The notes below the pieces were generated by a model that had not been told where the DNA came from, did not search any database, and saw only the letters and a program-made list of their open reading frames with translations. From contig CAIXRH010000025.1 in the NCBI GenBank assembly GCA_903921785.1, forward strand, positions 55,069 to 119,068: a DNA stretch of 64,000 nucleotides. The letters run 5' to 3'. This DNA comes from an uncultured Pseudomonadota bacterium. Its GTDB lineage: Bacteria > Myxococcota_A > UBA796 > SXON01. Shown one piece after another: positions 10,941-29,598 of this stretch (position 1 is its first letter; every line of letters starts with the position of its first letter). A program made the translations under genes and the position numbers.

Positions 10941-10948
10941 TACAAGTC

Positions 10949-12628: not shown

Positions 12629-12678
12629 GGGCGCCCGCTAACGCGCCGGGCCCCCGCCAGTCCGCACCGACCGCCCGC

Positions 12679-13461
12679 TCAGACGGAGACGCCGAAGTCC
12701 CGGAGCGCGGCGTTGAGCGACACCTTCTTGTCGGTGGACGGCTGCCGCTTGCCGATGATGAGCGCGCACGGCATCCCGTACTCGCCCGCGGGGAACTTCT
12801 TCGTACGAACGCCGGGGACCACCACACTGCGCGCCGGCACCCGACCGACGTGGCGCACCTCTTCGGGCCCGGTGACGTCGAGGATCGGCGTGGACGACGT
12901 GAGCACCACGTTCGCCCCGAGCACCGCCTCCTCTTCCACGATCACGCCCTCCACCACGATGCAGCGGCTGCCGATGAAGGCGCCGTCTTCGATGATGACC
13001 GGCCGCGCGCCCGCCGGCTCCAGCACGCCGCCGATGCCCACCCCGCCGCTGAGGTGCACGTTCCGGCCGATCTGGGCGCAGCTCCCCACGGTGGCCCAGG
13101 TGTCCACCATCGTGCCGGCGCCGACCCAGGCCCCGATGTTCACGTAGCCGGGCATCACGATCGCCCCGCGCTCCACGAACGCTCCGTACCGCACGGTCCC
13201 CGGAGGCACGACCCGCACGCCCGCCGCCGCGAGCCCCTTCTTCAGCGGGATCTTGTCGTAGAACTCGAAGGGGCCGACCTCCATCGTCTCCATCGGGGAG
13301 ATGCGGAAGAACCCGAGGATCGCCTCCTTCACCCAGGCGTGCACGATCCACTCGCCGCCCACCTTCTCGGCCACGCGGAGCTCGCCCCGGTCGAGGCGGG
13401 CGACGGCCTCGCGGATGGCATCGGGATCGGCGGCGGCGACACGGGCGGCGAGGTCGGACAT
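12679..13461 (-). CDS. dapD: 2,3,4,5-tetrahydropyridine-2,6-dicarboxylate N-succinyltransferase
   Basis: Hexapeptide-repeat left-handed beta-helix region (GAIVMPGYVNIGAWVGAGTMVDTWATVGSCAQIGRNVHLSGGVGIGGVLEP) with a DapD-type N-terminal helical domain. Confidence 0.9.
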   Translation of the reverse strand: MSDLAARVAAADPDAIREAVARLDRGELRVAEKVGGEWIVHAWVKEAILGFFRISPMETMEVGPFEFYDKIPLKKGLAAAGVRVVPPGTVRYGAFVERGAIVMPGYVNIGAWVGAGTMVDTWATVGSCAQIGRNVHLSGGVGIGGVLEPAGARPVIIEDGAFIGSRCIVVEGVIVEEEAVLGANVVLTSSTPILDVTGPEEVRHVGRVPARSVVVPGVRTKKFPAGEYGMPCALIIGKRQPSTDKKVSLNAALRDFGVSV

Positions 13462-13522
13462 CCGGCCCGCTTATCCACGATGCCCGCGACCGGATACCTT
13501 CGCCACCCTCCCTGGAGCAGCC

Positions 13523-14917
13523 ATGTCCATCCTGATCAAGAACGGCCGGATCGTCACCGCGGTGGACGACTACGTCGCCGACCTCTTCATCGACGGCGAG
13601 CAGATCACCGCCATCGGCAAGAACCTCCAGGTCCACGCCGACCGGGTGTTCGACGCCGCGGGCAAGCTGGTCATCCCCGGCGGCATCGACCCGCACACCC
13701 ACATGGACATGCCGTTCGGCGGCACCACCAGCGCCGACGATTTCGACACCGGCACGGTCGCCGCGGCGTTCGGCGGCACCACCACGATCGTCGACTTCGC
13801 GATCCAGCAGAAGGGCCACAGCACGCTCGACGGCCTGGAGGTCTGGCACCAGAAGGCCGAGGGGAAGGCCACGATCGACTACGGCTTCCACATGATCGTC
13901 ACCGATATGGCGGTGGAGCGGCTGGCGGAGATGGAGAAGCTCGCGGACGCGGGCGTCACCTCCTACAAGATGTTCATGGCCTACCCTGGCGTTCTCTACG
14001 TGGATGACGGTACGCTCTACCGCGCCTTCCGGCAGGCCGGCGAGAACCGCACCCGCATCTGCATGCATGCGGAGAACGGCATCGTCATCGACGAGATCAT
14101 CCGCGAGGCCCGCGAGGCCGGCCACACCGAGCCCGCCTGGCACGCCAAGACCCGCCCCACCCGCATGGAAGCCGAGGGCGTGCACCGCGCCATCGCCATC
14201 GCCGAGGTGGCCAAGGTGCCGCTCTACATCGTGCACCTGAGCAGCCATGACGCCCTGGAGCAGGTGCGCATCGGCCGAAACCGCGGGGTGGACGTCCAGG
14301 CCGAGACCTGCCCCCAGTACCTCACCCTCGACGACTCCTGGTACGACCGTCCGAACTTCGAGGGTGCGAAGTGGGTCATGACCCCGGCGCTGCGCGAGAA
14401 GTGGAACCAGGGCTCGCTCTGGCAGGGCCTCCGGTTCGGGGACCTCAGCGCGGTCGCCACCGACCACTGCCCCTTCTGCTTCAACGGCCAGAAGGAGCTC
14501 GGGCGCGACTCGTTCACCAAGATCCCCAACGGCGCGCCGGGCGTGGAGAACCGGGTGAACGTGCTCTACGACGCCGGCGTGCGCACCGGCCGCATCTCGC
14601 TCAACCGCTGGGTGGAGCTCACCAGCACCTCGGCCGCCAAGACCTTCGGTATGTTCCCCAAGAAGGGCACGATCGCCGTGGGCTCCGACGCCGACGTGGT
14701 GATCTTCGATCCGAACGAGACCCGCGTCGTGAGCATCCACGACAAGCGCACCCACCACATGCGCGTGGACTACTCGGCCTACGAGGGCCACGAGATCACC
14801 GGGTGGTCGCAGACCGTCATCAGCCGCGGCCGGGTGATCGTGCACAACAGCCAGCTCGAGACCCACAAGGGCGGCAAGTTCATCAAGCGCGCGCGGGTGG
14901 GCGACCTCCTGCGCTAG
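13523..14917 (+). CDS. dihydropyrimidinase / D-hydantoinase
   Basis: MSILIKNGRIVT..., metal-binding GGIDPHTHMDMPF, carbamylated-Lys context SYKMFMAY, and VHLSS...ATDHCPF; cyclic amidohydrolase family. ATG 13523 chosen inside track ORF 13301-14917. Confidence 0.9.
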   Translation: MSILIKNGRIVTAVDDYVADLFIDGEQITAIGKNLQVHADRVFDAAGKLVIPGGIDPHTHMDMPFGGTTSADDFDTGTVAAAFGGTTTIVDFAIQQKGHSTLDGLEVWHQKAEGKATIDYGFHMIVTDMAVERLAEMEKLADAGVTSYKMFMAYPGVLYVDDGTLYRAFRQAGENRTRICMHAENGIVIDEIIREAREAGHTEPAWHAKTRPTRMEAEGVHRAIAIAEVAKVPLYIVHLSSHDALEQVRIGRNRGVDVQAETCPQYLTLDDSWYDRPNFEGAKWVMTPALREKWNQGSLWQGLRFGDLSAVATDHCPFCFNGQKELGRDSFTKIPNGAPGVENRVNVLYDAGVRTGRISLNRWVELTSTSAAKTFGMFPKKGTIAVGSDADVVIFDPNETRVVSIHDKRTHHMRVDYSAYEGHEITGWSQTVISRGRVIVHNSQLETHKGGKFIKRARVGDLLR

Positions 14918-15026
14918 TCCGGGAATCCTCGTAGGGGCAGCCGGGGCGCCAGACCAGGTCGGCGCTCCGATACCACGTCCGGCGGCGCCGCCGGGCGGCT
15001 CGGGCCGCCCGGCGCGAACGGTCGGC
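14842..15026. repeat. direct repeat copy A (last 76 nt of the dihydropyrimidinase CDS plus 109 nt of 3' flank)
   Basis: Aligns without gaps to 26842-27026 with 6 mismatches (14920, 14932, 14957, 14974, 14975, 15001). Contains a GC hairpin GCCGGGCGGC-tcgg-GCCGCCCGGC at 14990-15013. Confidence 0.95.
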
Positions 15027-15031
15027 GTGAA

Positions 15032-17452
15032 CTACAACGTAAGGATGTAGGCCATCAGATCGTCGATTTCTGCGGGCGAGAGGTGGCTGGTGCCCCCGTT
15101 GGTGTCGGGGACTCCGTTCCGCTCGTTGAACCCGCGCTCCCCCGGATGGAGCGCCGGATGACCGGGGGTGCAGATCGCCTCGCGGAGCCCCTGCGCCCGC
15201 CCGTCGTGGTACATCCGCGGGGCCCGATCCCAGAGGCCGCGTAGCGGGGTCGCGTTGATCCGTAGGTTGCGAACGTCGTCGCAGGCGGCGGGGTCCTCGG
15301 CGCACGCCGCCTCTCCACAGAGCGCCTCGCAGGTGTCCTGCTCGACCATCGGGAAGATGCTCTGGAAGCCCACGGACACCAGATCGAGGTTCATCCCGGC
15401 ATCACTGTAGTTTGGGGTCACGACAGGGTCCATGCGCACGGCGACCCCGGCGGGGTTCACGTCCGTAGACACTGCGAAGCCCGGCGCCGGGTGACAGCTC
15501 ACGCAGTTCGAGGTCGTGCTCTCGAAGAGGGCCCTGCCGCGGAGCGCGGTGGGGTCATCAGGGTCGTTGGGGTTCGGGAGCAGCGCCGTGTTCTGCAGCA
15601 GGAACACACCCAGGGACTTGGTGACGCCGTCCAGATCGAGTGGAATCGGAGAGCGAGCGCCGGTGAGCAGGTCCTCGGCGTACACCCCATCGCCGAAGGA
15701 CTCCGTACGCCCGATCACCGCCTGGGCACGCTCGAGGTAGAAGGCCTCCCGGGTCAGCGACGAGGTCGGCCTCGGATGCGCGAGCGCGGAGCCGCGCACA
15801 GCCGTGATGCCGTCCGGAGTGTAGGCGTTCGGCTCGTCAGCACACTCGGGCGGAGGGTTCGACGCGCAGTCGGCCGGCGCTCCGTCGGGGAACAGGGTGT
15901 AGTCCTCACAGCAGAAGTTCTCGACACGCGCGAACTCGTTGATGACCGGCCGGAAGTTGGTCTGGTCCATCGCGCCCTCGAAGAACCATGGGCGGGTATC
16001 CGCAGCGCCCCGCGCGGCCATCGTCATCCGGCTGTTCTGCCCACCATACACAGAGAGGGGCATCCCGAAGACCTTGTTGATGTTGCCCTGCTCCCGGTGG
16101 CAGCTCGCGCACACCTGGTCCCCGTCCACGCTGAACTTCGACGTGACGAAGTTGTACAGCTCACCAATCTCCGCGTCAGTGGCGGGGAAGTCCCCATCTG
16201 ACACATCGCCTACAACGATGTTTTCCTCCACGGTGCCGTCGGCCTCGTACACGCCCAGCGTCTCCCCGAGGCGGTGCGCGATCACCACCCGGCCGTCGTC
16301 CGTGACCGCGATCCCGTGCGGGTTGTGGCCCGCCGTGTCGAACACCTTCCCGGCGGTGAGCGCGCCCGTCGTGACGTCCACATCGAAGCGCTGAAACTGG
16401 TTGGAGCCGGAGTAGGTCACCCAGGCGCCGTCCCCGTCGGCGACCACCTGCTCCGGCAACGCCCCGCCCACGATCCAGGTGTCCGCCGGGGGCAGCAGCT
16501 CCCCGTAGAGTGCGGCGTCGGCCGGATCGATGTCCCGGAAGTCCTTGCAGCAGATCGTGTCCGAGGTGTAGCGGTGGACCACGGTGCCCGTCTCCGGGTC
16601 GATGACCGCGATCTCGTTCTGGCTGTCCTGGAAGTTGCTGTTCGGCGTCCCATCTCCGGGCTGTCCATCGCCATCCGTGTCCGGCCCGGCAAACGGCAGG
16701 TGGTTGCTTGAGGCCGAGAGGGTCGGGACCACCAGCCACTCCCCCACGAACGCCAGACCGTTGGGCGGCGCGCGCAGGTCCACGGTCTGGACAAGGTCAC
16801 GGCTTTCGGTGTCGATGATCGACACGGTGAGCCCCGTGAGGTTGGCCACCGCCACGAAGCGGCCGTCGGGGCTCATGGCGAGATCCCGGGGGTTGACTCC
16901 CACCTTCACGCCCCCCACCTCCGTCGCCCGCCCATCAGCGTCGAACTCCCAGATGCGCACCTGATCGAGCCACCGGTTGGTCACCCAGAGCGTGGATCCG
17001 TCGGGAGAGAAGACCGCCTCGGTGGCATAGAAGTCGGTCGGAATCCGGTCGACCTCCACGTTGCTCTCCGAGTCGACCACCGACATCCAGTTCGAGAACC
17101 GATTGAGCACGAGGACCGACCGGCCATCGGGGCTGAGGACCAACCCCTGCGGGTTGGAGCCCACCTCCACCCGGTCGATCACGGAGCCGTCCGCGAGGTC
17201 GATCACGGCTACCCGATCGTCGGGAACGTCGGAGGTGCCCGGAAGTGAGACCCACGCCCGGTCGCCCTGGGTGATCACCTCCTGCGGCTTGGACCGGTGC
17301 GGCTGGGGCGCCCACTGGGGGTCGTCCTTGGGGAAGGGATTGGCGTACGGGGTGAGCGAGGCGGCGGTCCAATCGGGCGTGCACCCGATCCCCAGCGTCA
17401 TGAGAAGGCCGCCGGCGACGCCGCAGCCCAGGCCGAGTTGCGATGGCTTCAT
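15032..17452 (-). CDS. lipoprotein: YncE-like beta-propeller fused to a di-haem cytochrome c peroxidase/MauG-like domain
   Basis: Propeller repeats VLSPDGRSVLVLN, VFSPDGSTLWVTN, AMSPDGRFVAVAN. Two CXXCH motifs: CASCH (16097-16111) and CVSCH (15491-15505). ATG 17452 gives MKPSQLGLGCGVAGGLLMTLGIGC and overlaps the upstream stop as ATGA. Confidence 0.8.
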   Translation of the reverse strand: MKPSQLGLGCGVAGGLLMTLGIGCTPDWTAASLTPYANPFPKDDPQWAPQPHRSKPQEVITQGDRAWVSLPGTSDVPDDRVAVIDLADGSVIDRVEVGSNPQGLVLSPDGRSVLVLNRFSNWMSVVDSESNVEVDRIPTDFYATEAVFSPDGSTLWVTNRWLDQVRIWEFDADGRATEVGGVKVGVNPRDLAMSPDGRFVAVANLTGLTVSIIDTESRDLVQTVDLRAPPNGLAFVGEWLVVPTLSASSNHLPFAGPDTDGDGQPGDGTPNSNFQDSQNEIAVIDPETGTVVHRYTSDTICCKDFRDIDPADAALYGELLPPADTWIVGGALPEQVVADGDGAWVTYSGSNQFQRFDVDVTTGALTAGKVFDTAGHNPHGIAVTDDGRVVIAHRLGETLGVYEADGTVEENIVVGDVSDGDFPATDAEIGELYNFVTSKFSVDGDQVCASCHREQGNINKVFGMPLSVYGGQNSRMTMAARGAADTRPWFFEGAMDQTNFRPVINEFARVENFCCEDYTLFPDGAPADCASNPPPECADEPNAYTPDGITAVRGSALAHPRPTSSLTREAFYLERAQAVIGRTESFGDGVYAEDLLTGARSPIPLDLDGVTKSLGVFLLQNTALLPNPNDPDDPTALRGRALFESTTSNCVSCHPAPGFAVSTDVNPAGVAVRMDPVVTPNYSDAGMNLDLVSVGFQSIFPMVEQDTCEALCGEAACAEDPAACDDVRNLRINATPLRGLWDRAPRMYHDGRAQGLREAICTPGHPALHPGERGFNERNGVPDTNGGTSHLSPAEIDDLMAYILTL

Positions 17453-17967
17453 GGTCCAGTGTCCTCCGGGCAGATGGGATCGGCGCCGGTGTGAATGCAC
17501 GGGTCGTCGTCGACCAGCGTCCCGGAGGCGGACACGACGCAGTACCGGCTGACATCCTCCACGCGCACCACGAGGTCGGCGCCACGCCCCTCGTAGTAAC
17601 TCAGGTAGTTCGCGGTGAAGAAGATCAGAATCTCGTCGCTCAGCCCGTCCACGAACGCGACCCCGGGCTGTTTTCCGTCGATCCGGTCGGCGCCCTCCAC
17701 CACCATGGACATGGCCGCGTCCCCCGCCGGAAAGTCGCGCTCCGAGGTGCCCACGTACGCGGAGACCAGCAGGAACCCCTGAAAGCCCATCTGCAGCTCG
17801 AGCTCCGCGTTCTCACCGAAGGGAGCGAAGCCGCCCTCCTTGGTGAAGCTACCGAGTTCGCAGGTGAATTCCGACTTGTCGGCGCCGTCGCCCCCGCCGG
17901 TGTCGGGTGAACCGCTGGCGCACGCCGCCGCACCGAGCGCGAACGCCACCCGCCTAGAAGATCGCAT
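17449..17967 (-). CDS. hypothetical lipoprotein
   Basis: ATG 17967 gives MRSSRRVAFALGAAACASGS (lipobox AAAC). 172 aa, four further Cys, no family recognised. Overlaps the DUF3570 gene end by 14 nt. Confidence 0.55.
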   Translation of the reverse strand: MRSSRRVAFALGAAACASGSPDTGGGDGADKSEFTCELGSFTKEGGFAPFGENAELELQMGFQGFLLVSAYVGTSERDFPAGDAAMSMVVEGADRIDGKQPGVAFVDGLSDEILIFFTANYLSYYEGRGADLVVRVEDVSRYCVVSASGTLVDDDPCIHTGADPICPEDTGP

Positions 17968-19150
17968 CGATCCCCCCACCGAGCAGCCAGCCATCCCGAC
18001 TGGTCTCGTCGGGGAACACGTCGTGCCGCAGCCATAGGCGATCGACGTGGGCGGAGAGGCTCGCCCGGCTCGCCGGACCGAGCCCGTACAACGATCCCTC
18101 CACCGAGAGGCCCCCCTGGCCAGAGGTGAGGCCGCCCAGATCGAGGTCGCCGGTGCGCCACTCGGACGCGCTCGCGTAGCCCGGCCCCCAGAACGAGGCC
18201 GCGCTCTGCCGGGCGTATCGCCCGTTCGCCCGGACCGTGAGATGATCATCGAAGAACGACCGGACCAACGACAGCTGGACCGTGTGCCCCGTCACCTCCC
18301 AGGTGTCGAGGTAATAGCGATATCCGGCGTGCATCGCGGTCGCGACGCCGAACGCCTGTGACACCCTCGCGGCGGCCGCCACCCGCCCCCGCACCCCCGG
18401 GTGCCGTTCGGACAGGCTCAGCCCGTCCTCGAGGCGGACCTTCCGATACGGGCTGGCATCGCAGCCGAGCGCCTCGGCGCACGACTCGAATTCGCCGGTG
18501 GCGAGCAGGGTGGCGGTGGTGCTTCGCCCGAGGATCGTCCGCCCGCCCAGGTCGAGGGTGTGCACGTTGGCGGGCGCGGCGTACGCCGCGTCGTCCGCCC
18601 GCCCCACCGTCTCGAAGCGGGCGTGGTAGTCGGCGCTGAAGGTGACCATCCGCCCGAAGGCGTCGGCCTTCATCCCGACCCCGGCCGAGTGGGACACGAA
18701 GTCGGACTCGGCGCTCCCGGAGTAGGATCCGTGAACAGACCAGTCCGTCGAGGGCGCCCGGTCGATCCCCAGGGTCAACCCGTGGCGGGCCTCGGTGAAC
18801 CGTGTCGCCGAGGAGACCGCGTCGGTGGTGATGTGCGGCGTCGCCCCGCTGATGATGTCGGAGGCCCAGGCCGCGTCCACCGTCCAGCCGTGGGTGAGGT
18901 CGACCTTCACCCCGGCGCCGGGCGCCACGACGGTGATCCATCCGTCCGCGAAGTGGTCCACCCGAGCGTTCGTTTCCGTCACCCGAGGGGCGGGGGCGGC
19001 GGGAGCCGGCGCCACGGGAACCGAGGCCGGATCTCCGGGCGTGGCGGCGGGGGCCTCGCCGGGCGTGGCGGCGGCGGACGCCTCCGGTCCGCCCCCTGGA
19101 GGATCGTCGGCGAACGCCGCGCTGGGCAGGAGGACTAGCGGCAGCCACAT
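17954..19150 (-). CDS. DUF3570-like outer-membrane beta-barrel protein, predicted ApbE flavinylation substrate
   Basis: Signal peptide MWLPLVLLPSAAFA, Pro/Ala linker, alternating-strand pattern and terminal aromatic (..GGIDAIF). Motif DIISGAT (18839-18859) plus DAVSSAT (18803-18823). Directly preceded by a DUF4266-like gene, as is usual for this family. Confidence 0.75.
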   Translation of the reverse strand: MWLPLVLLPSAAFADDPPGGGPEASAAATPGEAPAATPGDPASVPVAPAPAAPAPRVTETNARVDHFADGWITVVAPGAGVKVDLTHGWTVDAAWASDIISGATPHITTDAVSSATRFTEARHGLTLGIDRAPSTDWSVHGSYSGSAESDFVSHSAGVGMKADAFGRMVTFSADYHARFETVGRADDAAYAAPANVHTLDLGGRTILGRSTTATLLATGEFESCAEALGCDASPYRKVRLEDGLSLSERHPGVRGRVAAAARVSQAFGVATAMHAGYRYYLDTWEVTGHTVQLSLVRSFFDDHLTVRANGRYARQSAASFWGPGYASASEWRTGDLDLGGLTSGQGGLSVEGSLYGLGPASRASLSAHVDRLWLRHDVFPDETSRDGWLLGGGIDAIF

Positions 19151-19329
19151 GACGCACCCGACGCGACCGTCGCGCCGGCCATGGCTTCGCGGACCTCGAT
19201 GACATGGGCCATCAGGGCCGCCTCGGAGGGATCGTACGGATCCTGCATGACCCGCGTCATCAGCGTCGCGCGTTCATACGGAGCGAGGTGGACGCAGCCC
19301 GAGAGGAGGATCAGCAAGAGGGGGAACAT
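19135..19329 (-). CDS. DUF4266-like mini-lipoprotein
   Basis: 64 aa, lipobox LLSGC, C-terminus ...GASCGCR resembling the Gly/Cys-rich tail I recall for DUF4266. Sits immediately upstream of the DUF3570-like gene with a 16-nt overlap. Confidence 0.7.
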   Translation of the reverse strand: MFPLLLILLSGCVHLAPYERATLMTRVMQDPYDPSEAALMAHVIEVREAMAGATVASGASCGCR

Positions 19330-19724
19330 CAGGGGGCCTCCGACCAGGCGCGCAGCGCCTCGTAGTCCGGGTCTTCTGTGGACTGCCAGATCACGCCGCC
19401 GAGGTGAGACATCCCCCCAACCGCGGGATCCAACGGTTTACGGGCCAGCTCCGAGGGCGGGAGGCTGAACCCGGCCGCGGAGAGGAAGTTCGCACGGGTC
19501 TCGTCCGCCGTCAGCTCGCCGTCGGCCCAGGCGTCCGCGGGGTCCATCCGATGGCGATGTACCGCGTAGATCTGGAGGGGACGGTCCACGTTGCCGTGGC
19601 AGGAAGGGTTCGCGCAGCTCGCCGTGAGCACCGGCTCCACGGTCTCGACGAACTCGCCGCTGTCGCCGAGATCGAGCTGGACGTCGGTGTTGTCGCCGAG
19701 GCAGCCCAGGAACAGGACGATCAT
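19329..19724 (-). CDS. small lipoprotein with a CX4CH motif
   Basis: ATG 19724 (ATGA overlap with the upstream stop) gives MIVLFLGCLGDN. Motif SCANPSCHG lies at 19596-19616. 131 aa; its N-terminal module resembles the N-terminus of the 932-aa neighbour. Confidence 0.55.
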   Translation of the reverse strand: MIVLFLGCLGDNTDVQLDLGDSGEFVETVEPVLTASCANPSCHGNVDRPLQIYAVHRHRMDPADAWADGELTADETRANFLSAAGFSLPPSELARKPLDPAVGGMSHLGGVIWQSTEDPDYEALRAWSEAP

Positions 19725-22519
19725 GGCGTGCCCCTCCACGTGGCGCCCAGGTCGATCCATCGGGTCACGGTCTGGATCTGATCGGTCGTGAGCCCTCCGT
19801 GGGGCGTGCCGGGCGTGGCGAGGTCGGCGGTGGCCGAGAGCTCCTCGCCGGTGAGCACCTCCACGAGGTGGCTCTGGTAGCTGCTGCCCGGCACCACGTC
19901 TCCCGCGAGGAGGGCCTCGTAGGCTACGTCGAACCACGTGGTTCGGGTGTCGGCGAGGTCGAGGCCGTCGGCCGGCGCACTGCCCGAGTGGCACGCCGCC
20001 GAGGCGCAGGTGGAGCTCAGCAATGGGGAGATGTCCCGGCGCCAATCCACCTCCACACGCGTGGCGTCCCCGGCCTCCGGCGCGGCGATCGGCCGCCGCG
20101 GGTCCTTGTTCTCGTACTGGGCCAGCGAGATCGAGGCGGTGCTCATGATGTCCGGCTCCACGAAGACGTCGGCGGGATCTCCGCTGAGCGAGCCGTGGCA
20201 CACGGAGCAGGAAAACGTGTAATAATGTCCGTCTGTCGCCGATACCCCCTGGGTGAGGGTCTGCCCGGGCGCCACGTAGTACCAACGATTGTAGTTCAGG
20301 TCGATCGCGCGGCCGGCGCTGTCGAGCGGCTGGAGCCGGAACGACACCCCCGCGGGGACGGAGCCCTGGAGCGAACCGTCCGCGAAGATCGGCAGCTCCG
20401 CGAGCACCCGCGCCGGCGGGTACACCCCGATCCCCGTGCTGGTGGCCCCGGGCGCGGAGTAGGGCAGGTCCGCCGCCGGCACCGGCTGCCGCTCCGCCGG
20501 AGTGAGCGGCAGTGCTTCCACGAGGCGGACGCCGACCACCCCGTAGGCCACGGGCTTGGCGCCGGTTGGTGGCAGGTCCAGGAGCAGCGAGGCGATGTTC
20601 CCGAGACCGAGCACGCGCACCAGCCCCCGCGGCTCCGCGGGATCCCACGACAGCTCCTCCACGACGTTGGAGGGACGCCGGACGTACACCGGCTCGGGAT
20701 CATAGGTCGACATCCCCGCTTCGCCCGCGACCAGCACCTCGCGGGAGGCGATGGAGGGCCCCTTGCCCCGCACCGACTCCGCCAGGGTCAGGCGCTCGAT
20801 CGAGAAGATGGGCGCGGCGTCGGGGTCCGCGAGGTCGAGGGTCCCGGCCGCACGCGCGACGAGAATCCGCCCGTCCGCCTCGGGGCTGGGGTCGCGGTAG
20901 AGGCTCGCGGTGACCCCCTTCGCGGCCGATTCTTCGTCGAGCCTGGCGATGGGGTCCGCGTAGAAGGGGATCGAGGCGTCGTCCTCCCCCCCGGCCGGAA
21001 TCTCCGGCCCGAAGTTCCGCTCCACGACGGCGAGCCGCCCGCCTACCCACACGTTGTCGACGTCGGAGAGGATGACCGGGTAGCGACCGTCCGGCAGCTC
21101 TCGCATGTCGTAGAAGACGTTTTCCGGTGCGGTGATCCCGAAGTGCGGGTGGTACTCCGTCCGGAGTCCTGGAGGGAAGCGGAAGATGTGGGCCCGCCTC
21201 TTGGAGGGGATGGCCTCGCGGAGCGCGGTGAAGCCCACCTGCCCTCCGTTCTCGGGGCCCACCACGAAGAAGACCGGCTTCCGCTCGATCTGAGGTGACC
21301 ACGTGCGGCGGGTGAGCTGGGAGCCATCGACGGCCACCGAGTAGAGCTCCGCGTCGAGCCGGACGCCATCGTCGGCGAGCACCCCCGCACGGGTGGAGGA
21401 GAACCAGAGCTGCCCATCGGGCGACCAGGTCGGATCACGATCCGCGCCTGAGGCCTCGTCCGTGACCTGCGTGGCCACGCGCGTGGTGAGGTCGAGCACC
21501 CAGAGGTGGTGTCCAGCGTCGTCGGGCCCGCGCATCGCGAACGCGAGCGCGGTGCCCTGGGGGTTCACCGCGGGCTCCCGGATGTCCGCCGGCCACGTGT
21601 GCAGCGCCGCGGTGAGGTTCTCTGTCGTCCCGTCCGCGTGGGCCCACCAAAGGTCGCTCCCGGGGACGTAGGCGTCGAGATCGAAGGTGTCCTCGGACTC
21701 CACCGGCCCTCGGACGTACACGAAGCCGTCGGTCTGCGGCTCGCAGGGCACGTCGAGTCGAGCCTGCCGTTCCTCGCAGGCCCAGGCCTCGACCGCCTGG
21801 ACCGCCGCGTCGTCGGGACCCGCGAAGAAGGCCTCGTTGCCCCCCTTGTGCACGATGCCCCCTGAGCCCAGCCGCAGTCCCTTCCGGAGCAGCCGGGACT
21901 GGGTAACGTCGCCGTCGAGGGACACCATCGCGAGCGCAGTGGCGTAGTTGGCGCGGGTGGCGCTCCGGGAGAACTCCCCTTGCAAGCCACCGTTGAAGCG
22001 GTAGGGCAGCGCCGCGGTGAGCCCGTGGCAGTTCGCGGTCATGCATCCGCGCGCGACGAGCTGGGGCTGCACGGTGTCGGCGAAGAGCTGCTCCCGATCG
22101 TCGAGCTCCGGGACGTTCTCACCACCGCCGCTCTCGCCCCCGATCCAGTCCCGAATCGCCTGGTAAGCCGGGTCGTCGGTCGAGGTGAAACACGCGCCGC
22201 CGTAGTGCGGGCTCCCACCCAGCTCCTGGGGGAGCGGGCGGGTGAGGACGGACGAGAATTCGGGCGCCTCGTCGGTGACGATGAACCGCTTCACCGTGCG
22301 ATAAGCTTCTTCCGGGTCAGAGAAGTCGCCGCCTTCATCCAACTGGAGTTCCAGCCGTTTCCAGTCGATGGTGAGCTCGGGCTCCGCGCCGGGAGCCACG
22401 CCGTGGCACGCGGTGTCGGCGCATCGGGCGTGGAGCACAGGAACGACGTCGGCGTCGAACCGAGCCCGGCCATCCAGCTCGGGGGTGCAGGCCATCAGGT
22501 GGACGAGCAGAGTGAGCAT
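19721..22519 (-). CDS. large lipoprotein with TolB/PD40-like beta-propeller repeats, three CX4CH motifs and one CXXCH motif
   Basis: Lipobox HLMAC. CADTACH (22403-22423), CMTANCH (22025-22045), CSVCH (20195-20209), CASAACH (19988-20008). PD40-like DRDPTWSPDGQLWFSSTRAG and AVNPQGTALAFAMRG. Confidence 0.75.
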   Translation of the reverse strand: MLTLLVHLMACTPELDGRARFDADVVPVLHARCADTACHGVAPGAEPELTIDWKRLELQLDEGGDFSDPEEAYRTVKRFIVTDEAPEFSSVLTRPLPQELGGSPHYGGACFTSTDDPAYQAIRDWIGGESGGGENVPELDDREQLFADTVQPQLVARGCMTANCHGLTAALPYRFNGGLQGEFSRSATRANYATALAMVSLDGDVTQSRLLRKGLRLGSGGIVHKGGNEAFFAGPDDAAVQAVEAWACEERQARLDVPCEPQTDGFVYVRGPVESEDTFDLDAYVPGSDLWWAHADGTTENLTAALHTWPADIREPAVNPQGTALAFAMRGPDDAGHHLWVLDLTTRVATQVTDEASGADRDPTWSPDGQLWFSSTRAGVLADDGVRLDAELYSVAVDGSQLTRRTWSPQIERKPVFFVVGPENGGQVGFTALREAIPSKRRAHIFRFPPGLRTEYHPHFGITAPENVFYDMRELPDGRYPVILSDVDNVWVGGRLAVVERNFGPEIPAGGEDDASIPFYADPIARLDEESAAKGVTASLYRDPSPEADGRILVARAAGTLDLADPDAAPIFSIERLTLAESVRGKGPSIASREVLVAGEAGMSTYDPEPVYVRRPSNVVEELSWDPAEPRGLVRVLGLGNIASLLLDLPPTGAKPVAYGVVGVRLVEALPLTPAERQPVPAADLPYSAPGATSTGIGVYPPARVLAELPIFADGSLQGSVPAGVSFRLQPLDSAGRAIDLNYNRWYYVAPGQTLTQGVSATDGHYYTFSCSVCHGSLSGDPADVFVEPDIMSTASISLAQYENKDPRRPIAAPEAGDATRVEVDWRRDISPLLSSTCASAACHSGSAPADGLDLADTRTTWFDVAYEALLAGDVVPGSSYQSHLVEVLTGEELSATADLATPGTPHGGLTTDQIQTVTRWIDLGATWRGTP

Positions 22520-22640
22520 GACGACGCCATCCCCGCGAAGGGAGGATAGCGGAAGGACTCACAAATGACAAGGTTATCAGCCTACAAGGTTGATAATACA
22601 CATCGGATATTCAACCGATGAGTCGTGTCCTGGGCGCCGT
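22520..22640 (-). promoter_or_regulatory. AT-richer intergenic region between apbE and the six-gene block: hairpin plus direct repeats
   Basis: Plus strand: ACAAGGTT at 22568-22575 and 22584-22591 (16-bp period); inverted repeat CATCGG-n8-CCGATG at 22601-22620. GC is clearly lower than the surroundings. Confidence 0.35.
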
Positions 22641-23600
22641 TCAGGGTCGCGCGTCGTTGCGCCACGCCACGACCGGGAGCCCGGGCGTGCTGCGGACCCG
22701 CCCGAGCTCGTCGATGGTGAGCGCCTCGACGCCCAGGCGCTCGGCGAGCGCGATACCCGCCACCGGTCCGTCAACCATCAGGGCGGTGGACAAAGCGTCG
22801 GCTCGCGTCGCGTCGGGAGAGACCACGGTGGCGGCGTGCAACCCGCGAGCGGGCATCCCCGTGTGCGGGTCGAGGATGTGGTGGTACCGCACGCCGCCCA
22901 GCTCGAAGTAACGCTCGTAGTCGCCGCTGGTGGACACCGAGGCGTCGGTGATCGCGAGCACGGCGAGCGTCTCGTTGGGGCCAGCCATCGGGTCCCGGAC
23001 CCCCACGCGCCACGGAGCCGCGGCGCCGTCCCGGTGGCCGGCCGCGTACACCTGCCCGCCGGCGGAGAGCATGAAGTCCACCCGACCGAGCGCCCGCAGA
23101 CGCCGCTGGGCCAGGTCCAACGCCCAACCCTTCGCGATGCCGCCGAGCCCGATGCGCATCCCCGCCACGGGCAGGCGCACGGTCCCCTCCCCAAGCTCCA
23201 CCTTGCGGTAGTCGATGAGGGGGAGCCGGGCTCGGATGGCGGCCGGGTCCGGTACCGCGGGCACATCGAAGTTCCACAACCCCCAGAGCGCCGCCCAGGT
23301 CAGGTCGAAGGCGCCGTCGGTCTCCCGGCCCAGCTCCACGGCGCGGCGGACGAGCTCGTAGGTGGGCGGCGGCACCGCCATCGCCGCACCGCCAGCGTGC
23401 GCGTTGACCTCGGCGAGAGGGGAGCCCTCCCGCCATTCGTTGGCGTCGTGCTCGACCTGGCGAAAAACGGTGAAGACCTCCGCCGCATCCGCCCCCGCCC
23501 GGGCGTCGTCTTCGAGGATCACCTCGATCCTCGTCGACATCGCCTGGATCTCGAAGGAACGGAGGCCGGCCGACGCCAGTGCGATCCACAGGAGAGTCAT
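22641..23600 (-). CDS. apbE: FAD:protein FMN transferase (ApbE family)
   Basis: Motifs GLGGIAKGWALD, STSGDYERYF, HHILDPHTGMP, ADALSTAL. ATG 23600 overlaps the upstream stop (ATGA). Signal-like N-terminus MTLLWIALASAG. Confidence 0.9.
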   Translation of the reverse strand: MTLLWIALASAGLRSFEIQAMSTRIEVILEDDARAGADAAEVFTVFRQVEHDANEWREGSPLAEVNAHAGGAAMAVPPPTYELVRRAVELGRETDGAFDLTWAALWGLWNFDVPAVPDPAAIRARLPLIDYRKVELGEGTVRLPVAGMRIGLGGIAKGWALDLAQRRLRALGRVDFMLSAGGQVYAAGHRDGAAAPWRVGVRDPMAGPNETLAVLAITDASVSTSGDYERYFELGGVRYHHILDPHTGMPARGLHAATVVSPDATRADALSTALMVDGPVAGIALAERLGVEALTIDELGRVRSTPGLPVVAWRNDARP

Positions 23601-25090
23601 GGCTGTTCCAGGGTGAGGGCGCGGAGCTCGAGCTCGACCTGCCGCAAGTCGGTCGCGCTCAACTCGCCGTCGTGGCGATGGCGCAGGCGTCCCGCCCCGT
23701 CCAGCACCCATGTGACCGGGAGCGCCGCCGGTGCGAGCTGCCCGACGAAGGCGGCCCTCGAATCGAGGGCCACCGGGAGCCTCAGCCTCAGTCGCGAGAC
23801 GATCCCTCGAGCCGGCGTCGGGGTCGCGTCCACGCTCACGGCCAGGAACCGGAACCCCTCGGGGGCGAGACGGGCGGCCAGGGCATCGAGGCGGGGCAGC
23901 TCGGCGAGGCAGGGCGAGCACCAGCTTGCCCACACGTTGAGCACACCGGGCGCGCCCAGGAGCGCTTGCTCCGTGACCGCGCGCCCATCCAGGCCGGGGA
24001 TCGAGAAAGAGGGGAGGCTGGAGGGCTCGGGGGACGCGGCGGACGCGGTGGGAACCAGGGCCCGGAGCAGGGTGCGCCCGAGGCTCGCCGTCGGCTCACA
24101 CTCCGACACCGTGGCCGTGCGGTCGCCCGCCCCGTAACGAACGATCACGCCGTGCTTCTCCCCGGTCGAAAACAGGTTCCCGCCCGCGAAGAGGACGTCG
24201 TCTGCATGGCCCCAGGCTGCGTGGAGATGGTCCGGTGTGAGCGGGAGCTCCGGGCGCAGCCAGCCGTCGTCCTGGAGGAGCGCCACCGTGCCGAAGTTGC
24301 CGGCGACTGCCACGTCGGCGCCCGGCGCCGTCCAGACGCCGGCGAGCGGCTGACCCAGCTCGGTGGCGTCCACCTCGCTCCAGCTCAGGCCGTCCCAGTG
24401 GGTGACCAGGGGCGTGCCCAGGCCGCCCACCGCCCACACGTCATCGGCGGCGCGCCCCCGCACGGTCAGCAGGTGCCCGCCCCCGGCGTCCACAGGCACG
24501 AGCACCCCGTCGCCGTCGAGGTGCCAGGCCACACCATCCCCCACGAACCACCCATCCCATACCTTGAAGACTGCCCCGGCCGCATCCTGGAGCACGGGGC
24601 TCCAAGTGCCGGCGGTTCTCCGCCAGATCTCCCCGGTGGAGCCGTTCTCGTCGAAGGTCCCGCCCACGGCCCAGACATCCGCACCATCCATGTACACGCC
24701 GAAGAGCGTAGCGTCCGTCGGCACGTCCTCCCGGGTGCGCCCCGCCGGCGTTGCGTGGACGATGCGCCCCGCCTCGCCCACGGCGTACCACTCCCCAGCG
24801 CCGTCCCCGTGGATCCACCAAAGCGTCTTGTCCGCGACCGCCCGCTCCACGCAGAGCGACTCCCCGTCGTAACGCGCGATCACCCCCTCCGAACCGCCGA
24901 TCTGCCCGCCGGAGAACAAGACGTCGCCTCCGTCGTCGGTCGCCGAGAGCAGCGCGCCCCCCGGGATGTCCTCGGCGAGCACCGAGAAGTGGGGCCCGTC
25001 GCCCGTGTCCGTTGCGGTGGAGCTGGAGGTGCACGAGGCGAGTAGCCAGAGGAGCATGGGTCCATCCAGTGAGGATCGCGGCGGAATCAT
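23597..25090 (-). CDS. lipoprotein: propeller-like repeat domain fused to a TlpA/ResA-type thioredoxin domain
   Basis: C-terminal LNVWASWCSPCLAELP (WCxxC redoxin). The N-terminal ~330 aa carry repeated W-x-VG motifs (WYAVGEAG, VWAVGGTF, VWAVGGLG). Lipobox LLASC after Met12, so start 25057 is possible. Confidence 0.8.
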   Translation of the reverse strand: MIPPRSSLDGPMLLWLLASCTSSSTATDTGDGPHFSVLAEDIPGGALLSATDDGGDVLFSGGQIGGSEGVIARYDGESLCVERAVADKTLWWIHGDGAGEWYAVGEAGRIVHATPAGRTREDVPTDATLFGVYMDGADVWAVGGTFDENGSTGEIWRRTAGTWSPVLQDAAGAVFKVWDGWFVGDGVAWHLDGDGVLVPVDAGGGHLLTVRGRAADDVWAVGGLGTPLVTHWDGLSWSEVDATELGQPLAGVWTAPGADVAVAGNFGTVALLQDDGWLRPELPLTPDHLHAAWGHADDVLFAGGNLFSTGEKHGVIVRYGAGDRTATVSECEPTASLGRTLLRALVPTASAASPEPSSLPSFSIPGLDGRAVTEQALLGAPGVLNVWASWCSPCLAELPRLDALAARLAPEGFRFLAVSVDATPTPARGIVSRLRLRLPVALDSRAAFVGQLAPAALPVTWVLDGAGRLRHRHDGELSATDLRQVELELRALTLEQP

Positions 25091-26700
25091 CGGGTCACCG
25101 CGTGGCGGCCGGGGACCACATCATCAAGCACGGTCGTGCCCCCTTCGAACCACTCCACCGTGAGCCGATCGGCGCTCGGATAGCCCCCCAACCCCACGAA
25201 GAGCTCGGCGGCCGATGAGGAGCTGACGGTGCCGGGGAGCATCCATTGGTACGTGGTCCGGCCCCCGACCTCCGCGACGAGGCGGGCGCCGATCCCCTGT
25301 CGGTTCCCCGGTCCTGCGTCGAGGGTCAGGACGACATCCCCCCCGCAGCCGCCCGAGAGCTTCCAGGTCTTAAGATAGTATTTTCCGGTCGTGACCAGGT
25401 CGGGCTGCCCGTCGCGGTCGAGGTCACCCACCACCACCGAGCGGCCCCGCGCCGGGTCGCCGAAGCCCCACCCGTCGGTGCGCTCAAAGCCGCCCTCGCA
25501 GTCCCCGCGAAGGATGACATCTGGCTGATTCTCAGCGTCTATCCATCCTTGTTGGAGCCCCGCCACGGCGTCGGTGTTGGTGCCGGACTGGCCGAACATC
25601 AGGATGAGGTCCTGGCAGCGGTCGCCGTCCACGTCGAGGAAGGTGGTCCCCCACCCGGTCATGGTGCTCGGGTCGGGCGGCACCAGCGAACCATTGGCCT
25701 CCGTCGCGTCAACAAAATGGCCAGAACCGAGGTTCAGGAGGTAGTTCGGTCCGCCTACATCGGAGATGTACAGGTCTGGGAGCCCATCGTTGTCCCCGTC
25801 GCCGACGGCCACGCCCATCGAGAACATCGCCAGCTCGCAGCCGCAGTCGGCTGCGCGCGCGAAGTGTCCCGCGCCGTCGTTGAGCCAGAGGTGGTTCGGA
25901 TCCAGGAAGGGGCCGGCGTCGTTGGCCTCGTAGACGTCGAGGTCCCCGTCGCCCTCGGCGTCGAACCAACGCCCCTCGAAGGTGTGCCCGTGAACCTCCC
26001 GAGTCGGGAGCTCTCCGAGGGAGAAGTGGCCGGCTCCGTCGTTGAAGTACAGGCGCTCCGGCTGCCCCTCCATAGTGCCGGCGATGACCTCCGCCGCCGA
26101 GACATTGGCGATCCCGGTCGCAAGCCACGCGTCGAGGTCACCGTCGGCGTCCGCGTCCGCCAGTTCTGCGCTCAGGGTGATGCCCAGGTTCGGCTCCGCG
26201 AGCGGCTCGAACGTGAGGTTGCCGGCCCCGTCCCCACGCAAGACTCCGTCGGACGCCAGCGAGCGGCCGAGGAGCCCGTCGAGGTCGCCGTCGGCGTCGA
26301 GGTCCGCGAGGGCGACCGCGTGGGCGCCGCCGAGCACGGCTCCGGCGTCGTCGAGGAGCGGATGGTCCACCGTGAGTCGGCCCGCTCCGTCGTTGAGCAA
26401 GACAATGGCCCCGGCTCCGCCCGCAAACACGGCGTCCAACCAGCCATCCCCGTTCAGGTCACCTAGGGCGACACCGGTCACGCCGCGCTCGTCTGCCCAC
26501 TCCAGCGCCTCGATCTCCGCGCCTTCCCACGCGTCCACCCCCGTGATGCTCACCGGCACGCAGTCAACCGGTGACGCGGAGTCCCCGGGCGCCACCAGCG
26601 CTCCCCCAGACGTGCCAGGGCCCATGCAGCCCACAAGGCAGAACGCGGCGCTCAACCTGCGGCCGCCCCACGACCGCGCGCCGGGGCGGCCCGACATCAT
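25087..26700 (-). CDS. FG-GAP/VCBS repeat lipoprotein with ASPIC/UnbV-like C-terminus (CRTAC1 family)
   Basis: Repeats DLNGDGWLD, DLDADGDLD, DADADGDLD, DGDNDGLPD, DLDRDGQPD; C-terminal GARLVAEVGGRTTYQWM...LTVEWFEGG. Start moved to ATGATG at 26700 (MMSGRPG...AAFCLVGC lipobox). The track start at 26886 lies inside repeat copy B. Confidence 0.8.
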   Translation of the reverse strand: MMSGRPGARSWGGRRLSAAFCLVGCMGPGTSGGALVAPGDSASPVDCVPVSITGVDAWEGAEIEALEWADERGVTGVALGDLNGDGWLDAVFAGGAGAIVLLNDGAGRLTVDHPLLDDAGAVLGGAHAVALADLDADGDLDGLLGRSLASDGVLRGDGAGNLTFEPLAEPNLGITLSAELADADADGDLDAWLATGIANVSAAEVIAGTMEGQPERLYFNDGAGHFSLGELPTREVHGHTFEGRWFDAEGDGDLDVYEANDAGPFLDPNHLWLNDGAGHFARAADCGCELAMFSMGVAVGDGDNDGLPDLYISDVGGPNYLLNLGSGHFVDATEANGSLVPPDPSTMTGWGTTFLDVDGDRCQDLILMFGQSGTNTDAVAGLQQGWIDAENQPDVILRGDCEGGFERTDGWGFGDPARGRSVVVGDLDRDGQPDLVTTGKYYLKTWKLSGGCGGDVVLTLDAGPGNRQGIGARLVAEVGGRTTYQWMLPGTVSSSSAAELFVGLGGYPSADRLTVEWFEGGTTVLDDVVPGRHAVTR

Positions 26701-26841
26701 CGCCGCCCCAGATGCTCGCGCGACGAATACATTGCCCCGATATACCTGGCGATCGGCCACCGCACCATCGGTCGCCGGACCGATGGCGCGGCGCGGTCGT
26801 CCGCCAGGCTCGCCAGCGGCGCGCCGGGCGTGGAGAATCGC

Positions 26842-27026
26842 GCACAACAGCCAGCTCGAGACCCACAAGGGCGGCAAGTTCATCAAGCGCGCGCGGGTGG
26901 GCGACCTCCTGCGCTAGTCAGGGAATCCTCGCAGGGGCAGCCGGGGCGCCAGACCACGTCGGCGCTCCGATACTCCGTCCGGCGGCGCCGCCGGGCGGCT
27001 GGGGCCGCCCGGCGCGAACGGTCGGC
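26842..27026. repeat. direct repeat copy B (orphan copy of the dihydropyrimidinase 3' end and hairpin)
   Basis: ~97% identical to 14842-15026. It still reads ..HNSQLETHKGGKFIKRARVGDLLR-stop, but there is no hydantoinase sequence upstream of 26837. Hairpin copy at 26990-27013. Confidence 0.95.
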
Positions 27027-27067
27027 TCACTGGGGGGAGGCCGGCGGGGACGAGCCCGGTCGGCGCG

Positions 27068-27829
27068 TCAGTCGGGGTCGGGGTCGGGAGCGGGCCGCAG
27101 GACCCGCTCCATGAACGCCGCGCGGTTGTTCACGCACGCCTTGAGCACCTGGTACGGCGCGGTGTCTTCGTAGCGGACCTCGGCGATCTCGCCCTCGTCG
27201 AAGGAGAGGATCTGCGCGCCGGGGAGAGCGAGCAGCACTGCCGAGTGGGTGGCGATGATGAACTGGGTGTCGGGCGAGGCGGCGAGGAGTTGGTCGAGGA
27301 CGAGAAGGAACGACAACTGCCGCTGCGGCGAGAGCGCGGCTTCGGGCTCGTCCATCAGGTAGAAGCCGCCCGGGCGGAGGCGGTGCTTCGCGAGGGCCAT
27401 GAACGACTCGCCGTGCGACTGCCGATGGAGGGGAAGGCCGCCGTACTGCGCGAGCATCTCGCGATCCTCGCCCAGGTAGGTGGCGAGGTTGAAGAAGCTC
27501 TCGGCGCGGAGGAAGAACCCGAAGAGCAGCTTTCGGGCCCACGACAGCCGCAGGGCGCCCGCCAGCGGCGCCGAGCTCGCGTTCGCGTCCGTCGTGTCGT
27601 GCCGGATGTGGCGCGAGCCGCCTTCCCGGCCCAGCCCGAAGCTCTCCGCGATCGCCTCGAGGAGCGTGGACTTGCCGCTGCCGTTCTCGCCGACGAAGAA
27701 GCACACCCGCCGGTTCAATTCGATCGTGTCCAGGCGGCGGATCACGGGAACGTCGAACGGATAACGAGCGCCCTCCGGCACCCGCGCCCGCAGCAGGCGG
27801 ACGCTGCGCAAGGGCGGCGGGTCGTCCAT
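27068..27829 (-). CDS. stand-alone SMC/ABC-like AAA ATPase
   Basis: Walker A GENGSGKSTLLEAIA, signature-like SHGESFMAL, Walker B FYLMDEPEAALSP, H-loop ATHS. ATG 27829 (MDDPPPL) preferred to track start 27907. Confidence 0.75.
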   Translation of the reverse strand: MDDPPPLRSVRLLRARVPEGARYPFDVPVIRRLDTIELNRRVCFFVGENGSGKSTLLEAIAESFGLGREGGSRHIRHDTTDANASSAPLAGALRLSWARKLLFGFFLRAESFFNLATYLGEDREMLAQYGGLPLHRQSHGESFMALAKHRLRPGGFYLMDEPEAALSPQRQLSFLLVLDQLLAASPDTQFIIATHSAVLLALPGAQILSFDEGEIAEVRYEDTAPYQVLKACVNNRAAFMERVLRPAPDPDPD

Positions 27830-28237
27830 GCCGAACCGGCGCGTGGGCGGCGGGCTTCTACGCAAGACGACGGACCTCTCGACAGGTGCAGGTAAGCTCC
27901 TGCCCACCCAAGGGCGAGCTCATGCGCTCTTTGCGCGCGTGATCTCCCTGGAGACCCCAGGATCGACGCGACGGTCGACATCGCCGCCGCCCCCGAGCGG
28001 GCGCGGGCCGACGTGCTGCGGTGGCCGGAGTGGACGCCGACCGTCACCGCGGTTCGGCCGCTCGGCGCGCCGAAGGGTAGTCCGGGGCGGATCGCCGAGG
28101 CCGCGGCGGGACGGTGCGCCCACGGCGACAACGCTGGTTCGACGATCGTTGACACCGAGTGACCCGCCGATTACGGCGCGCGGCCCCGAGGGTACCCCCC
28201 CCGGGCGCTCTTTCGGTTTCCCGTCCCAGGCCACCTG

Positions 28238-28468
28238 ATGATCGATCCGAACATCTGGAGGCGCGCGGCGCCCGCCATGGCGCTGGTGAGCGCGATGACC
28301 AGCTCCATGCTGGCCGGCGTGCTCCTCGGCTCCTGGCTGGATCGGCGGTTCAACACTGGACCGTGGTTCACCGCCGGGCTCACCTTCCTGGGGTTCGGGA
28401 TCGGCATCCGCCGCTTGTTGAACGCTTCAACCACTCCCCCCGATGACCCCCCGAACCCTGCTCCGTGA
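28238..28468 (+). CDS. AtpZ/AtpI-like small membrane protein of the F-ATPase operon
   Basis: 76 aa with two TM helices (MALVSAMTSSMLAGVLLGSWLD, WFTAGLTFLGFGIGI), first in line before atpI/atpB/atpE. Confidence 0.65.
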   Translation: MIDPNIWRRAAPAMALVSAMTSSMLAGVLLGSWLDRRFNTGPWFTAGLTFLGFGIGIRRLLNASTTPPDDPPNPAP

Positions 28469-29582: not shown

Positions 29583-29598
29583 TCTCTCTGGAGCTCAC

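Follow-up and report, generated by a model that had tools for sequence, protein, structure and literature searches.

A nine-gene operon for putative extracytoplasmic redox proteins is bracketed by two directly repeated copies of the 3' end of hyd, a gene for a dihydropyrimidinase/hydantoinase-like amidohydrolase, in a 64,000-nt stretch of DNA from an uncultured Pseudomonadota bacterium (assembly GCA_903921785.1, contig CAIXRH010000025.1, positions 55,069 to 119,068; hereafter the window). The left copy (copy A) is the end of the intact gene, and the right copy (copy B) is non-coding. The explanation we favour, to which we give an even chance, is that copy B is a pseudogene relic of a lineage-specific rearrangement and that its last 190 nt were later gene-converted. 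A preliminary description, made from the letters of the window, had compared the same arrangement with the scar of a site-specific or Campbell-type integration into the 3' end of the gene.

Geometry of the repeat pair

The hyd gene (13523-14917, plus strand; Pfam Amidohydro_1) is intact and encodes a protein of 464 aa, with a start at MSILIKNG that was chosen from the translation. The protein has an exact match in public assemblies, and the G+C content at third codon positions (GC3) of the gene is 0.97. Its final 81 nt and 109 nt of the 3' flank make up copy A (14837-15026, plus strand). Copy B (26837-27026, plus strand), a non-coding relic of the hyd 3' end and flank, aligned with copy A as an ungapped direct match of 190 nt with seven mismatches (96.3% identity; copy A positions 14841, 14920, 14932, 14957, 14974, 14975, and 15001) and a start-to-start offset of exactly 12,000 bp. 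This match (E = 2e-86 in a blastn search of the gene region against the window) is far above chance; it is the sole long repeat of such quality in the window, and no comparable match was found elsewhere in it.

The preliminary description had given a pair of 185 bp (14842-15026 and 26842-27026) with six listed mismatches, the same orientation, and the 12,000-bp offset, and the alignment reproduced all of these. The repeat runs 5 nt further to the left, to 14837/26837, adding the mismatch at 14841; the share of copy A that had been assigned to the coding sequence, its last 76 nt followed by 109 nt of flank, was borne out and becomes 81 nt when counted from 14837. The longest perfectly identical stretch is a mismatch-free core of 78 nt (14842-14919 = 26842-26919), which is of sufficient length for RecA-type recombination and is the only stretch able to confuse assemblers working with a short k. 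On its right edge, copy A stops 5 nt short of the stop codon of the convergent 806-aa gene of the operon.

Anatomy of copy B

Copy B is located in a 367-nt spacer between the start of the FG-GAP gene of the operon (26700) and the stop codon of its right neighbour, an AAA_21/AAA_15-type ATPase gene (27068-27829, minus strand, 253 aa; identified by Pfam, translation, and public contigs). This stop codon lies 41 nt beyond the repeat edge. The copy had been taken for an orphan tail with no hydantoinase sequence upstream of about 26837, a statement contradicted by a second, apparently older hyd-derived fragment at 26790-26840 (plus strand; hereafter the 52-nt piece). The 52-nt piece is homologous to hyd 14502-14553 (83% identity, one 1-nt indel; E = 1e-7 in a blastn search of the whole window), and its source is about codons 327-344 of the 464-aa protein, with the conserved motif FTKIPNGAPGVEN. 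It directly adjoins the 190-nt block, is collinear with hyd, and is out of frame with the tail; between the two parts, 287 nt of the gene (14551-14837) are absent. None of hyd upstream of about codon 327 is left in copy B, and public annotations call no gene there. When the sequence to the left of about 26790 was examined by local alignment for a further hyd relic, the score equaled the mean of shuffled sequences. Positions 26701-26789 are a unique spacer without detectable hyd similarity, located upstream of the first gene of the operon and presumably containing its promoter.

The two parts of copy B have diverged to unequal extents. Nine differences in 52 nt were observed in the piece, compared with seven in 190 nt in the block (Fisher p = 0.0017), so that 17% divergence (26790-26840) adjoins 3.7% (26837-27026). 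Six of the seven substitutions in the piece changed A/T to G/C, and the proportion of A/T sites changed in this way was 6/14 in the piece and 1/28 in the coding part of the block (p = 0.004). On these sequence comparisons, the 52-nt piece is significantly more decayed than the block, which points to two parts of different age. A foreign donor for the piece is not indicated, as none of about 85 hyd loci came closer to it than the window's own gene.

With two collinear hyd pieces, a 287-nt deletion, a 1-nt indel, a frame change, and truncation, copy B has the anatomy of a decaying gene copy and not that of an attachment (att) site. The 287-nt gap extends from the first base of one CCGGGTGA octamer (14551-14558) to the last base of a second one (14830-14837). 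These octamers are 279 nt (93 codons) apart in hyd and both are missing from copy B, which argues against a simple slipped-repeat deletion.

Depth of the A/B divergence

A sister strain (L176, from metagenome 3300009158 of the Joint Genome Institute, JGI) is 97.1% identical to the window at the nucleotide level over 13733-21529, and its junction of hyd, flank, and 806-aa gene is the same as the copy A junction of the window. A three-way comparison of the 190 nt gave five changes specific to copy B, five specific to the sister strain, and one specific to copy A of the window, with one site at which all three differ. Copy A of the window differs from copy B at 7/190 positions and from the sister's copy A at 7/190 positions as well. 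The comparison covers only copy A of the sister strain, and L092 ends at window position 27091. Judged from these counts, the coalescence of copies A and B appears to be about as deep as the 3% strain split, and the 52-nt piece much older.

Divergence between the window and the sister strain is patchy, ranging from 0.3 to 6.7% per 300 nt. Twenty differences were found in the first 300 nt of the aligned part of hyd, and much of the 806-aa gene showed one to three per 300 nt; overall, divergence was 4.7% in hyd and 1.5% in the 806-aa gene (Fisher p = 6e-8). An abrupt shift in divergence between the strains at the repeat was considered and rejected, as the patchy pattern has no step at copy A. 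The patchiness suggests frequent homologous recombination between strains, and thus that recombination is active in the population.

Proposed origin of copy B

The two relic ages are most simply accounted for by an old relic and a later conversion of the 190-nt block. We propose that a chromosomal rearrangement produced a second copy of the 3' part of hyd, at least about 525 nt long and possibly the whole gene, so that the nine-gene operon came to have hyd sequence on either side; the rearrangement would have proceeded by homologous or illegitimate recombination and not by an integrase. The original event could have placed the operon between hyd and the ATPase gene, moved hyd from the ATPase side to the DapD side, or created an ectopic copy of at least 525 nt. 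The relic would then have lost 287 nt internally and everything upstream, and the remaining 52-nt internal piece would have drifted to 83% identity. Gene conversion, in either direction, may later have made the last 190 nt uniform with copy A again, over a tract confined between the deletion breakpoint (left) and the point where homology gives out (right); the 52-nt island would have been too short and too diverged for conversion. The high-identity tract is indeed bounded by the limits of contiguous homology and lies beside older, diverged homology. Gene conversion, terminator function, and the nature of the original rearrangement are the steps that we infer.

Several points weigh against this explanation. 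Among the relatives examined, no genome with the pre-rearrangement order was found. Conversion rests on 16 differences in 242 nt, and selection on the block or a mosaic origin could fit equally well. The edge of copy A, 5 nt from the last gene of the operon, is as tidy as would be expected if the operon had arrived whole, and blocks as long as 190 bp are known from islands in protein-coding targets. Finally, the GC3 of the interior is significantly lower and its codon usage less adapted than those of the flanks.

Stem-loops in the repeated flank

RNA folding predicted two stem-loops in the flank of copy A. Stem-loop 1 (14942-14969) has the mismatch at 14957 in its loop. Stem-loop 2 (14988-15014) has 11-12 G+C pairs (arms 14988-14999 and 15004-15014), a 4-nt loop containing the mismatch at 15001, and no U-tract; a G+C hairpin with its mismatch in the loop had already been pointed out in this flank, and folding agreed with it. 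The corresponding stem-loops of copy B (26942-26969 and 26988-27014) follow the ATPase stop codon on the minus strand, ahead of the operon. The six flank mismatches all spare the stems, two of them falling in loops (chance about 0.04).

The duplicated flank provides the same G+C-rich stem-loop pair at both operon ends. Those of copy A would end the convergent hyd and operon transcripts, stem-loop 2 being a likely shared terminator of hyd (plus strand) and the operon (minus strand). Those of copy B likely act as a terminator or insulator between the ATPase gene and the operon, ending the ATPase transcript and insulating the promoter region of the operon. Scans of both copies with consensus models detected no canonical terminator and no promoter, and 26701-26789 contained no sigma-70 match; such absence is expected in a genome of 71% G+C without U-tracts. 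The 190-nt block may owe part of its conservation to selection on the two stem-loops.

A nine-gene redox operon between the copies

The segment between the repeats is occupied by one minus-strand operon of nine genes (15032-26700), in which neighbouring genes overlap or abut at seven of the eight junctions and are separated by a gap of 121 nt at the remaining one. The genes were assigned by Pfam, by public gene calls together with Pfam on public contigs, and by motif search. In order of position, all on the minus strand, they encode an 806-aa beta-propeller with two CxxCH motifs (15032-17452), a 172-aa protein (17449-17967), a DUF3570 protein with an SGAT motif (17954-19150), a DUF4266 protein with a C-terminal CGC (19135-19329), a 131-aa protein (19329-19724), a 932-aa PD40/HZS-alpha-like protein with one CxxCH (19721-22519), ApbE (22641-23600), a TlpA-like redoxin with CSPC (23597-25057), and an FG-GAP/UnbV_ASPIC (CRTAC1-like) lipoprotein (25087-26700). 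We infer the start of the last gene at 26700 from the lipoprotein signal MMSGRPGARSWGGRRLSAAFCLVGC and from public gene calls of 536/537 aa. Most of the nine products have an N-terminus resembling a signal peptide or a lipoprotein signal. The largest non-coding gaps of the interior are 121 nt (22520-22640) and 140 nt (26701-26840).

A type of gene cluster associated with flavinylation, with ApbE, DUF3570, DUF4266, and thioredoxin-like proteins, has been described (Meheust et al., 2021, PMC8238504). ApbE, the SGAT of DUF3570, the CGC of DUF4266, the CSPC redoxin, and secretion signals were all found in the operon, which is accordingly predicted to be an extracytoplasmic electron-transfer system of a known chromosomal type, and not mobile-element cargo.

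The interior had been described, by eye, as having the same G+C and codon style as the flanks. This was not confirmed: mean GC3 was 0.885 in the interior and 0.929 in the rest of the window (Mann-Whitney p = 8e-4), the interior value being within the range of some flank genes. The lower GC3 would fit a foreign origin and, equally well, secreted proteins made at a low level.

In LBMAG42, the homologous operon (L178:10001-17416) consists of a six-gene core only, from the 932-aa gene, whose homologue is 75% identical, to a gene for a 798-aa beta-propeller, with unrelated flanks. The ApbE, redoxin, and FG-GAP genes are not at the LBMAG42 locus, and in the window they are set off from the core by the 121-nt gap. 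The nine-gene operon looks as if it had been assembled from two modules.

The locus in more distant relatives

Synteny was screened by tblastn, and tblastx was discarded for its noise at high G+C. The preliminary description had suggested that an empty site in relatives should read hydantoinase, one repeat copy, and then the ATPase gene. No such junction was found in 80 hyd loci (60-88% aa identity), in 80 ATPase loci, or in the contexts of the closest hyd (92.5%) and the closest DapD (93%), and the 80 hyd loci included none of the neighbours that hyd has in the window. The closest hyd stands after dapA-dapB and before a short-chain dehydrogenase/reductase gene, and the closest DapD is followed by a DapE-like peptidase. 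Among the 80 ATPase loci, retrieved in a metagenome scan, one homologue was 95% identical, on a contig cut inside the gene, and 79 were 50-58% identical and in other contexts. The closest FG-GAP homologue was 74% identical, and its surroundings had nothing in common with the window beyond the anchor gene or the core of the operon. By the criterion given in the preliminary description, the missing empty site favours a local duplication, weakly so, as synteny between these relatives and the window is altogether lacking.

Some observations on the surroundings of hyd can be added. The gene stands beside lysine/diaminopimelate (DAP)-pathway genes in two otherwise non-syntenic genomes: in the window it is divergent from dapD (12679-13461, minus strand), and in the 92.5% relative it is downstream of dapA-dapB and a 315-aa gene (L172:7496-11395). 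The amidohydrolase might have a role in this pathway. The 3' neighbour of dapD is an RNase H-domain gene in the window and the DapE-like M20 peptidase in the 93% DapD relative. In the metagenome-assembled genome TH-Jun18-28, the nearest relative at species level in the genome collection (88% aa identity in hyd), a 590-aa large serine recombinase with Resolvase, Recombinase, and Zn_ribbon_recom domains is encoded 2.8 kb downstream of the hyd stop codon (L006:14174-15946, minus strand); the hyd 3'-end repeat was not found within this locus. In this clade, rearrangements may be concentrated downstream of hyd.

Possible integration into hyd or possible relocation of hyd

Of the alternatives to a converted relic, an integration scar survives best, and we regard it as unlikely. 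It would have the 12-kb operon transferred as a unit into the hyd 3' end, either site-specifically, through an attP with a surrogate hyd 3' end, much as phage 21 and e14 integrate at icd, or by Campbell crossover of a circle that brought a hyd fragment along; the gene end would have been regenerated as copy A and the original end displaced as copy B, and the integrase would have been lost or have acted in trans. The architecture is as the preliminary description had it. A direct repeat block is present at both ends with hyd intact at copy A, and the direct orientation, with the intact gene on the left and the partial copy beside the right host flank, is the topology expected of such an event. 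The repeat length is also in range, since blocks of up to about 250 bp have been reported for islands in protein-coding targets (PMC7192596). The interior begins 5 nt past the repeat and is a complete functional unit, it departs from the flanks in GC3 and codon usage, and the core found in a wholly different neighbourhood in LBMAG42 indicates that the operon does move. The large serine recombinase 2.8 kb downstream of hyd in the closest species representative could be added to these points; against the scar, serine recombinases are not known to make long direct repeats.

Several results weigh against this reading. As had been noted from the translations, none of the nine genes resembles an integrase, transposase, or recombinase. 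Pfam and public gene calls, covering the segment and about 10 kb around it, likewise gave no gene for an integrase, an excisionase, or a transposase and none of phage or plasmid type, and the largest gaps, of 121-140 nt, leave no room for a decayed integrase. The 12-kb segment had no megablast match in plasmid and phage collections. Neither the 52-nt hyd piece on the element side of copy B nor the internal deletion is explained by an att site, and a Campbell crossover predicts uniform divergence, in contrast with the observed 17% beside 3.7% and the 287-nt deletion. The empty site was found in none of the relatives examined, and the left junction is already present in the same form in the sister strain. 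The absence of a recombinase, the single-operon interior, the extra older hyd piece, the non-uniform divergence, and the missing empty site together disfavour the scar, so that of the earlier interpretation the architecture stood and the site-specific or Campbell mechanism was left unsupported. Given the weakness of the empty-site comparison and a repeat length in the known range, an old, stripped-down island keeps a small share of the probability.

A further alternative, which we consider less likely still, is a specific version of the explanation we favour. Copy B would mark the ancestral site of a full-length hyd, convergent with the ATPase gene and divergent from the operon; a full copy would have been duplicated to the DapD side and the old copy deleted. 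A relic with two separated gene parts and at least one internal deletion must once have been longer, and at either position hyd would be the lone plus-strand gene in a minus-strand run from 11121 to 27829. With hyd beside DapD in the window and beside dapA/dapB in the closest relative, a move next to DapD could be selected. However, hyd similarity is not detectable to the left of about 26790, and several steps would be required (duplication, a deletion of about 1 kb or larger, the 287-nt deletion, and conversion).

Other kinds of element were rejected. A transposon or insertion-sequence origin is contradicted by the lack of a transposase, by the absence of inverted repeats at 15027/26836, and by the length of 190 nt, far beyond any target-site duplication. 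A multi-copy repetitive extragenic palindrome, a miniature inverted-repeat transposable element, or a known RNA is at odds with a copy number of two in the window and with the lack of a credible match in Rfam. A tRNA target was dismissed, the nearest tRNA genes (10645-10940 and 35292) being away from both repeats; the former are a cluster of Ser-TGA, Ser-GCT, and Arg-ACG, 2.6 kb upstream of hyd, and the latter is a tRNA-Leu(GAG) gene (35292-35378) after secG that adjoins no repeat copy.

Two other repeats were observed in the window. An intergenic direct repeat of 74 nt (42655-42728 and 53006-53079; 88% identity, 10,351 bp apart) has both copies beginning at a TGA, and three imperfect tandem-like units of 49 nt (60493-60628; 71-80% identity, spacing 51 and 36 nt) lie inside the open reading frame 60140-61372.

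Junctions in independent assemblies

Exact matches to the hyd, FG-GAP, and ATPase proteins were found together on contigs of at least 20 kb in 14 sample blocks, and a public 131-kb contig has the same gene spacing as the window. A 24.3-kb scaffold (L001, ERZ18647913) is 100% identical to window 10855-24917, spanning copy A, and a 27.0-kb scaffold from another sample (L086, ERZ18648719) is 99.99% identical to 24232-35201, spanning copy B, with the same seven differences from copy A. All long contigs carry, on either side of the core, the copy-specific variants in the combination that belongs to the integrated form.

The 78-nt core allows contig ends to be predicted for k = 31: the right-flank contig should end at 26890, and the interior contig should cover 14890-26871, a length of 11,982 nt. 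Logan contigs L002 and L003 stop at 26890, as predicted, and the Logan contig with the FG-GAP gene begins at 26871 and measures 11,982 nt, which equals 12,000 - 78 + 60. With the repeat and the contig ends reproduced across samples, the spacing of 12,000 bp belongs to the reads themselves in several samples; an artefactual spacing was rejected on the evidence of the 131-kb contig, the two scaffolds, and the length of the Logan contig. We take the round number to be a coincidence, roughly a 1-in-1000 event noticed post hoc.

Contigs in ERZ1426584 and ERZ27313436 both stop at 27035, 9 nt to the right of copy B, and a third stops at 27014, near the right edge of the copy. Coverage may have dropped out in these extremely G+C-rich hairpins, or the population may contain a structural variant here.

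There is a slim chance that the operon is an integrase-free cassette that loops out through the 78-nt core by RecA-driven recombination as a 12.0-kb circle and re-inserts at hyd. Loop-out would leave an intact hyd joined to the ATPase gene and give presence/absence variation in the lake population, and re-insertion by homology could also follow transfer of the circle into a related cell. The short-k graph is compatible with a mixture of integrated and excised forms, and the shared contig end at 27035 could be a hint of such a structural variant; the long contigs all have the integrated phase.

Least probable of all is an assembly artefact or strain chimera, in which a chromosome with hyd joined to the ATPase gene and a separate 12-kb circle or second strain were misthreaded via the core: the topology of the Logan contig graph fits both arrangements and a number of short contigs have their ends inside copy B or close to it, but at least three long contigs (131, 24.3, and 27.0 kb) from different samples, and possibly different assemblies, have the same threading, contigs of at least 20 kb in the 14 sample blocks bear all three genes, hyd is independently joined to the 806-aa gene on the JGI contig of the sister strain (97% identical), the 78-nt core is shorter than typical reads, and a 12-kb circle without replication genes is implausible as a replicon. 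The artefact option raised in the preliminary description is thus effectively excluded as far as contigs allow, the junctions being the same across samples.

Comparison with known systems

On the reading that copy B is a converted relic, the locus is a clean, small example of chromosome rearrangement, in which a gene fragment would have been left beside an operon, part of it kept near-identical, and its terminator hairpins re-used. It also calls for caution, as an intact gene with an orphan 3' tail is insufficient for calling a genomic island, and it illustrates that repeat-bounded contig breaks in metagenomes are predictable to the base. If the repeats do mediate the loss and regain of a 12-kb redox operon, this would be a simple, integrase-free route to presence/absence variation at the level of whole operons.

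The closest named pattern is the displaced gene 3' end that integrative elements leave in a protein-coding target, as in the known cases of e14 and phage 21 at icd. Like the islands of TIGER/Islander, the locus has a direct repeat in the range of about 100-250 bp that comes from the 3' end of the target gene (PMC7192596), with the intact gene at one end and an orphan tail at the other end beside the old downstream flank. Unlike them, it lacks an integrase or other mobility gene, its cargo is one chromosomal-type operon, its orphan copy has extra, older, internally deleted sequence on the cargo side, and no uninterrupted reference site was found among the relatives examined. With no integrase or mobile-element gene detected in the segment, no uninterrupted site among the relatives examined, and extra relic sequence that the pattern does not explain, we do not file the locus as an integrative element.

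The operon itself resembles the cluster of Meheust et al. (PMC8238504) in its ApbE, its DUF3570 with [S/T]GA[S/T], its DUF4266 with a C-terminal CXC, and its thioredoxin-fold CxxC protein. It differs in having no DsbD and in adding haem-c beta-propellers (806 and 932 aa) and a CRTAC1-like FG-GAP lipoprotein.

Gene relics that arise by segmental duplication and are subject to conversion offer a further set of likenesses: copy B is truncated, frame-shifted, internally deleted, and intergenic, with heterogeneous similarity to its source; the boundaries coincide with the ends of contiguous homology, the two copies are direct and 12 kb apart, and the population has patchy, recombination-like divergence. 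In contrast to such relics, the duplication in the window precisely brackets a complete operon, 5 nt from its last stop codon, and the copies keep two stem-loops that are perhaps functional at both sites. As a whole, the locus falls into the general class of gene relics, with concerted evolution probable over part of the relic.

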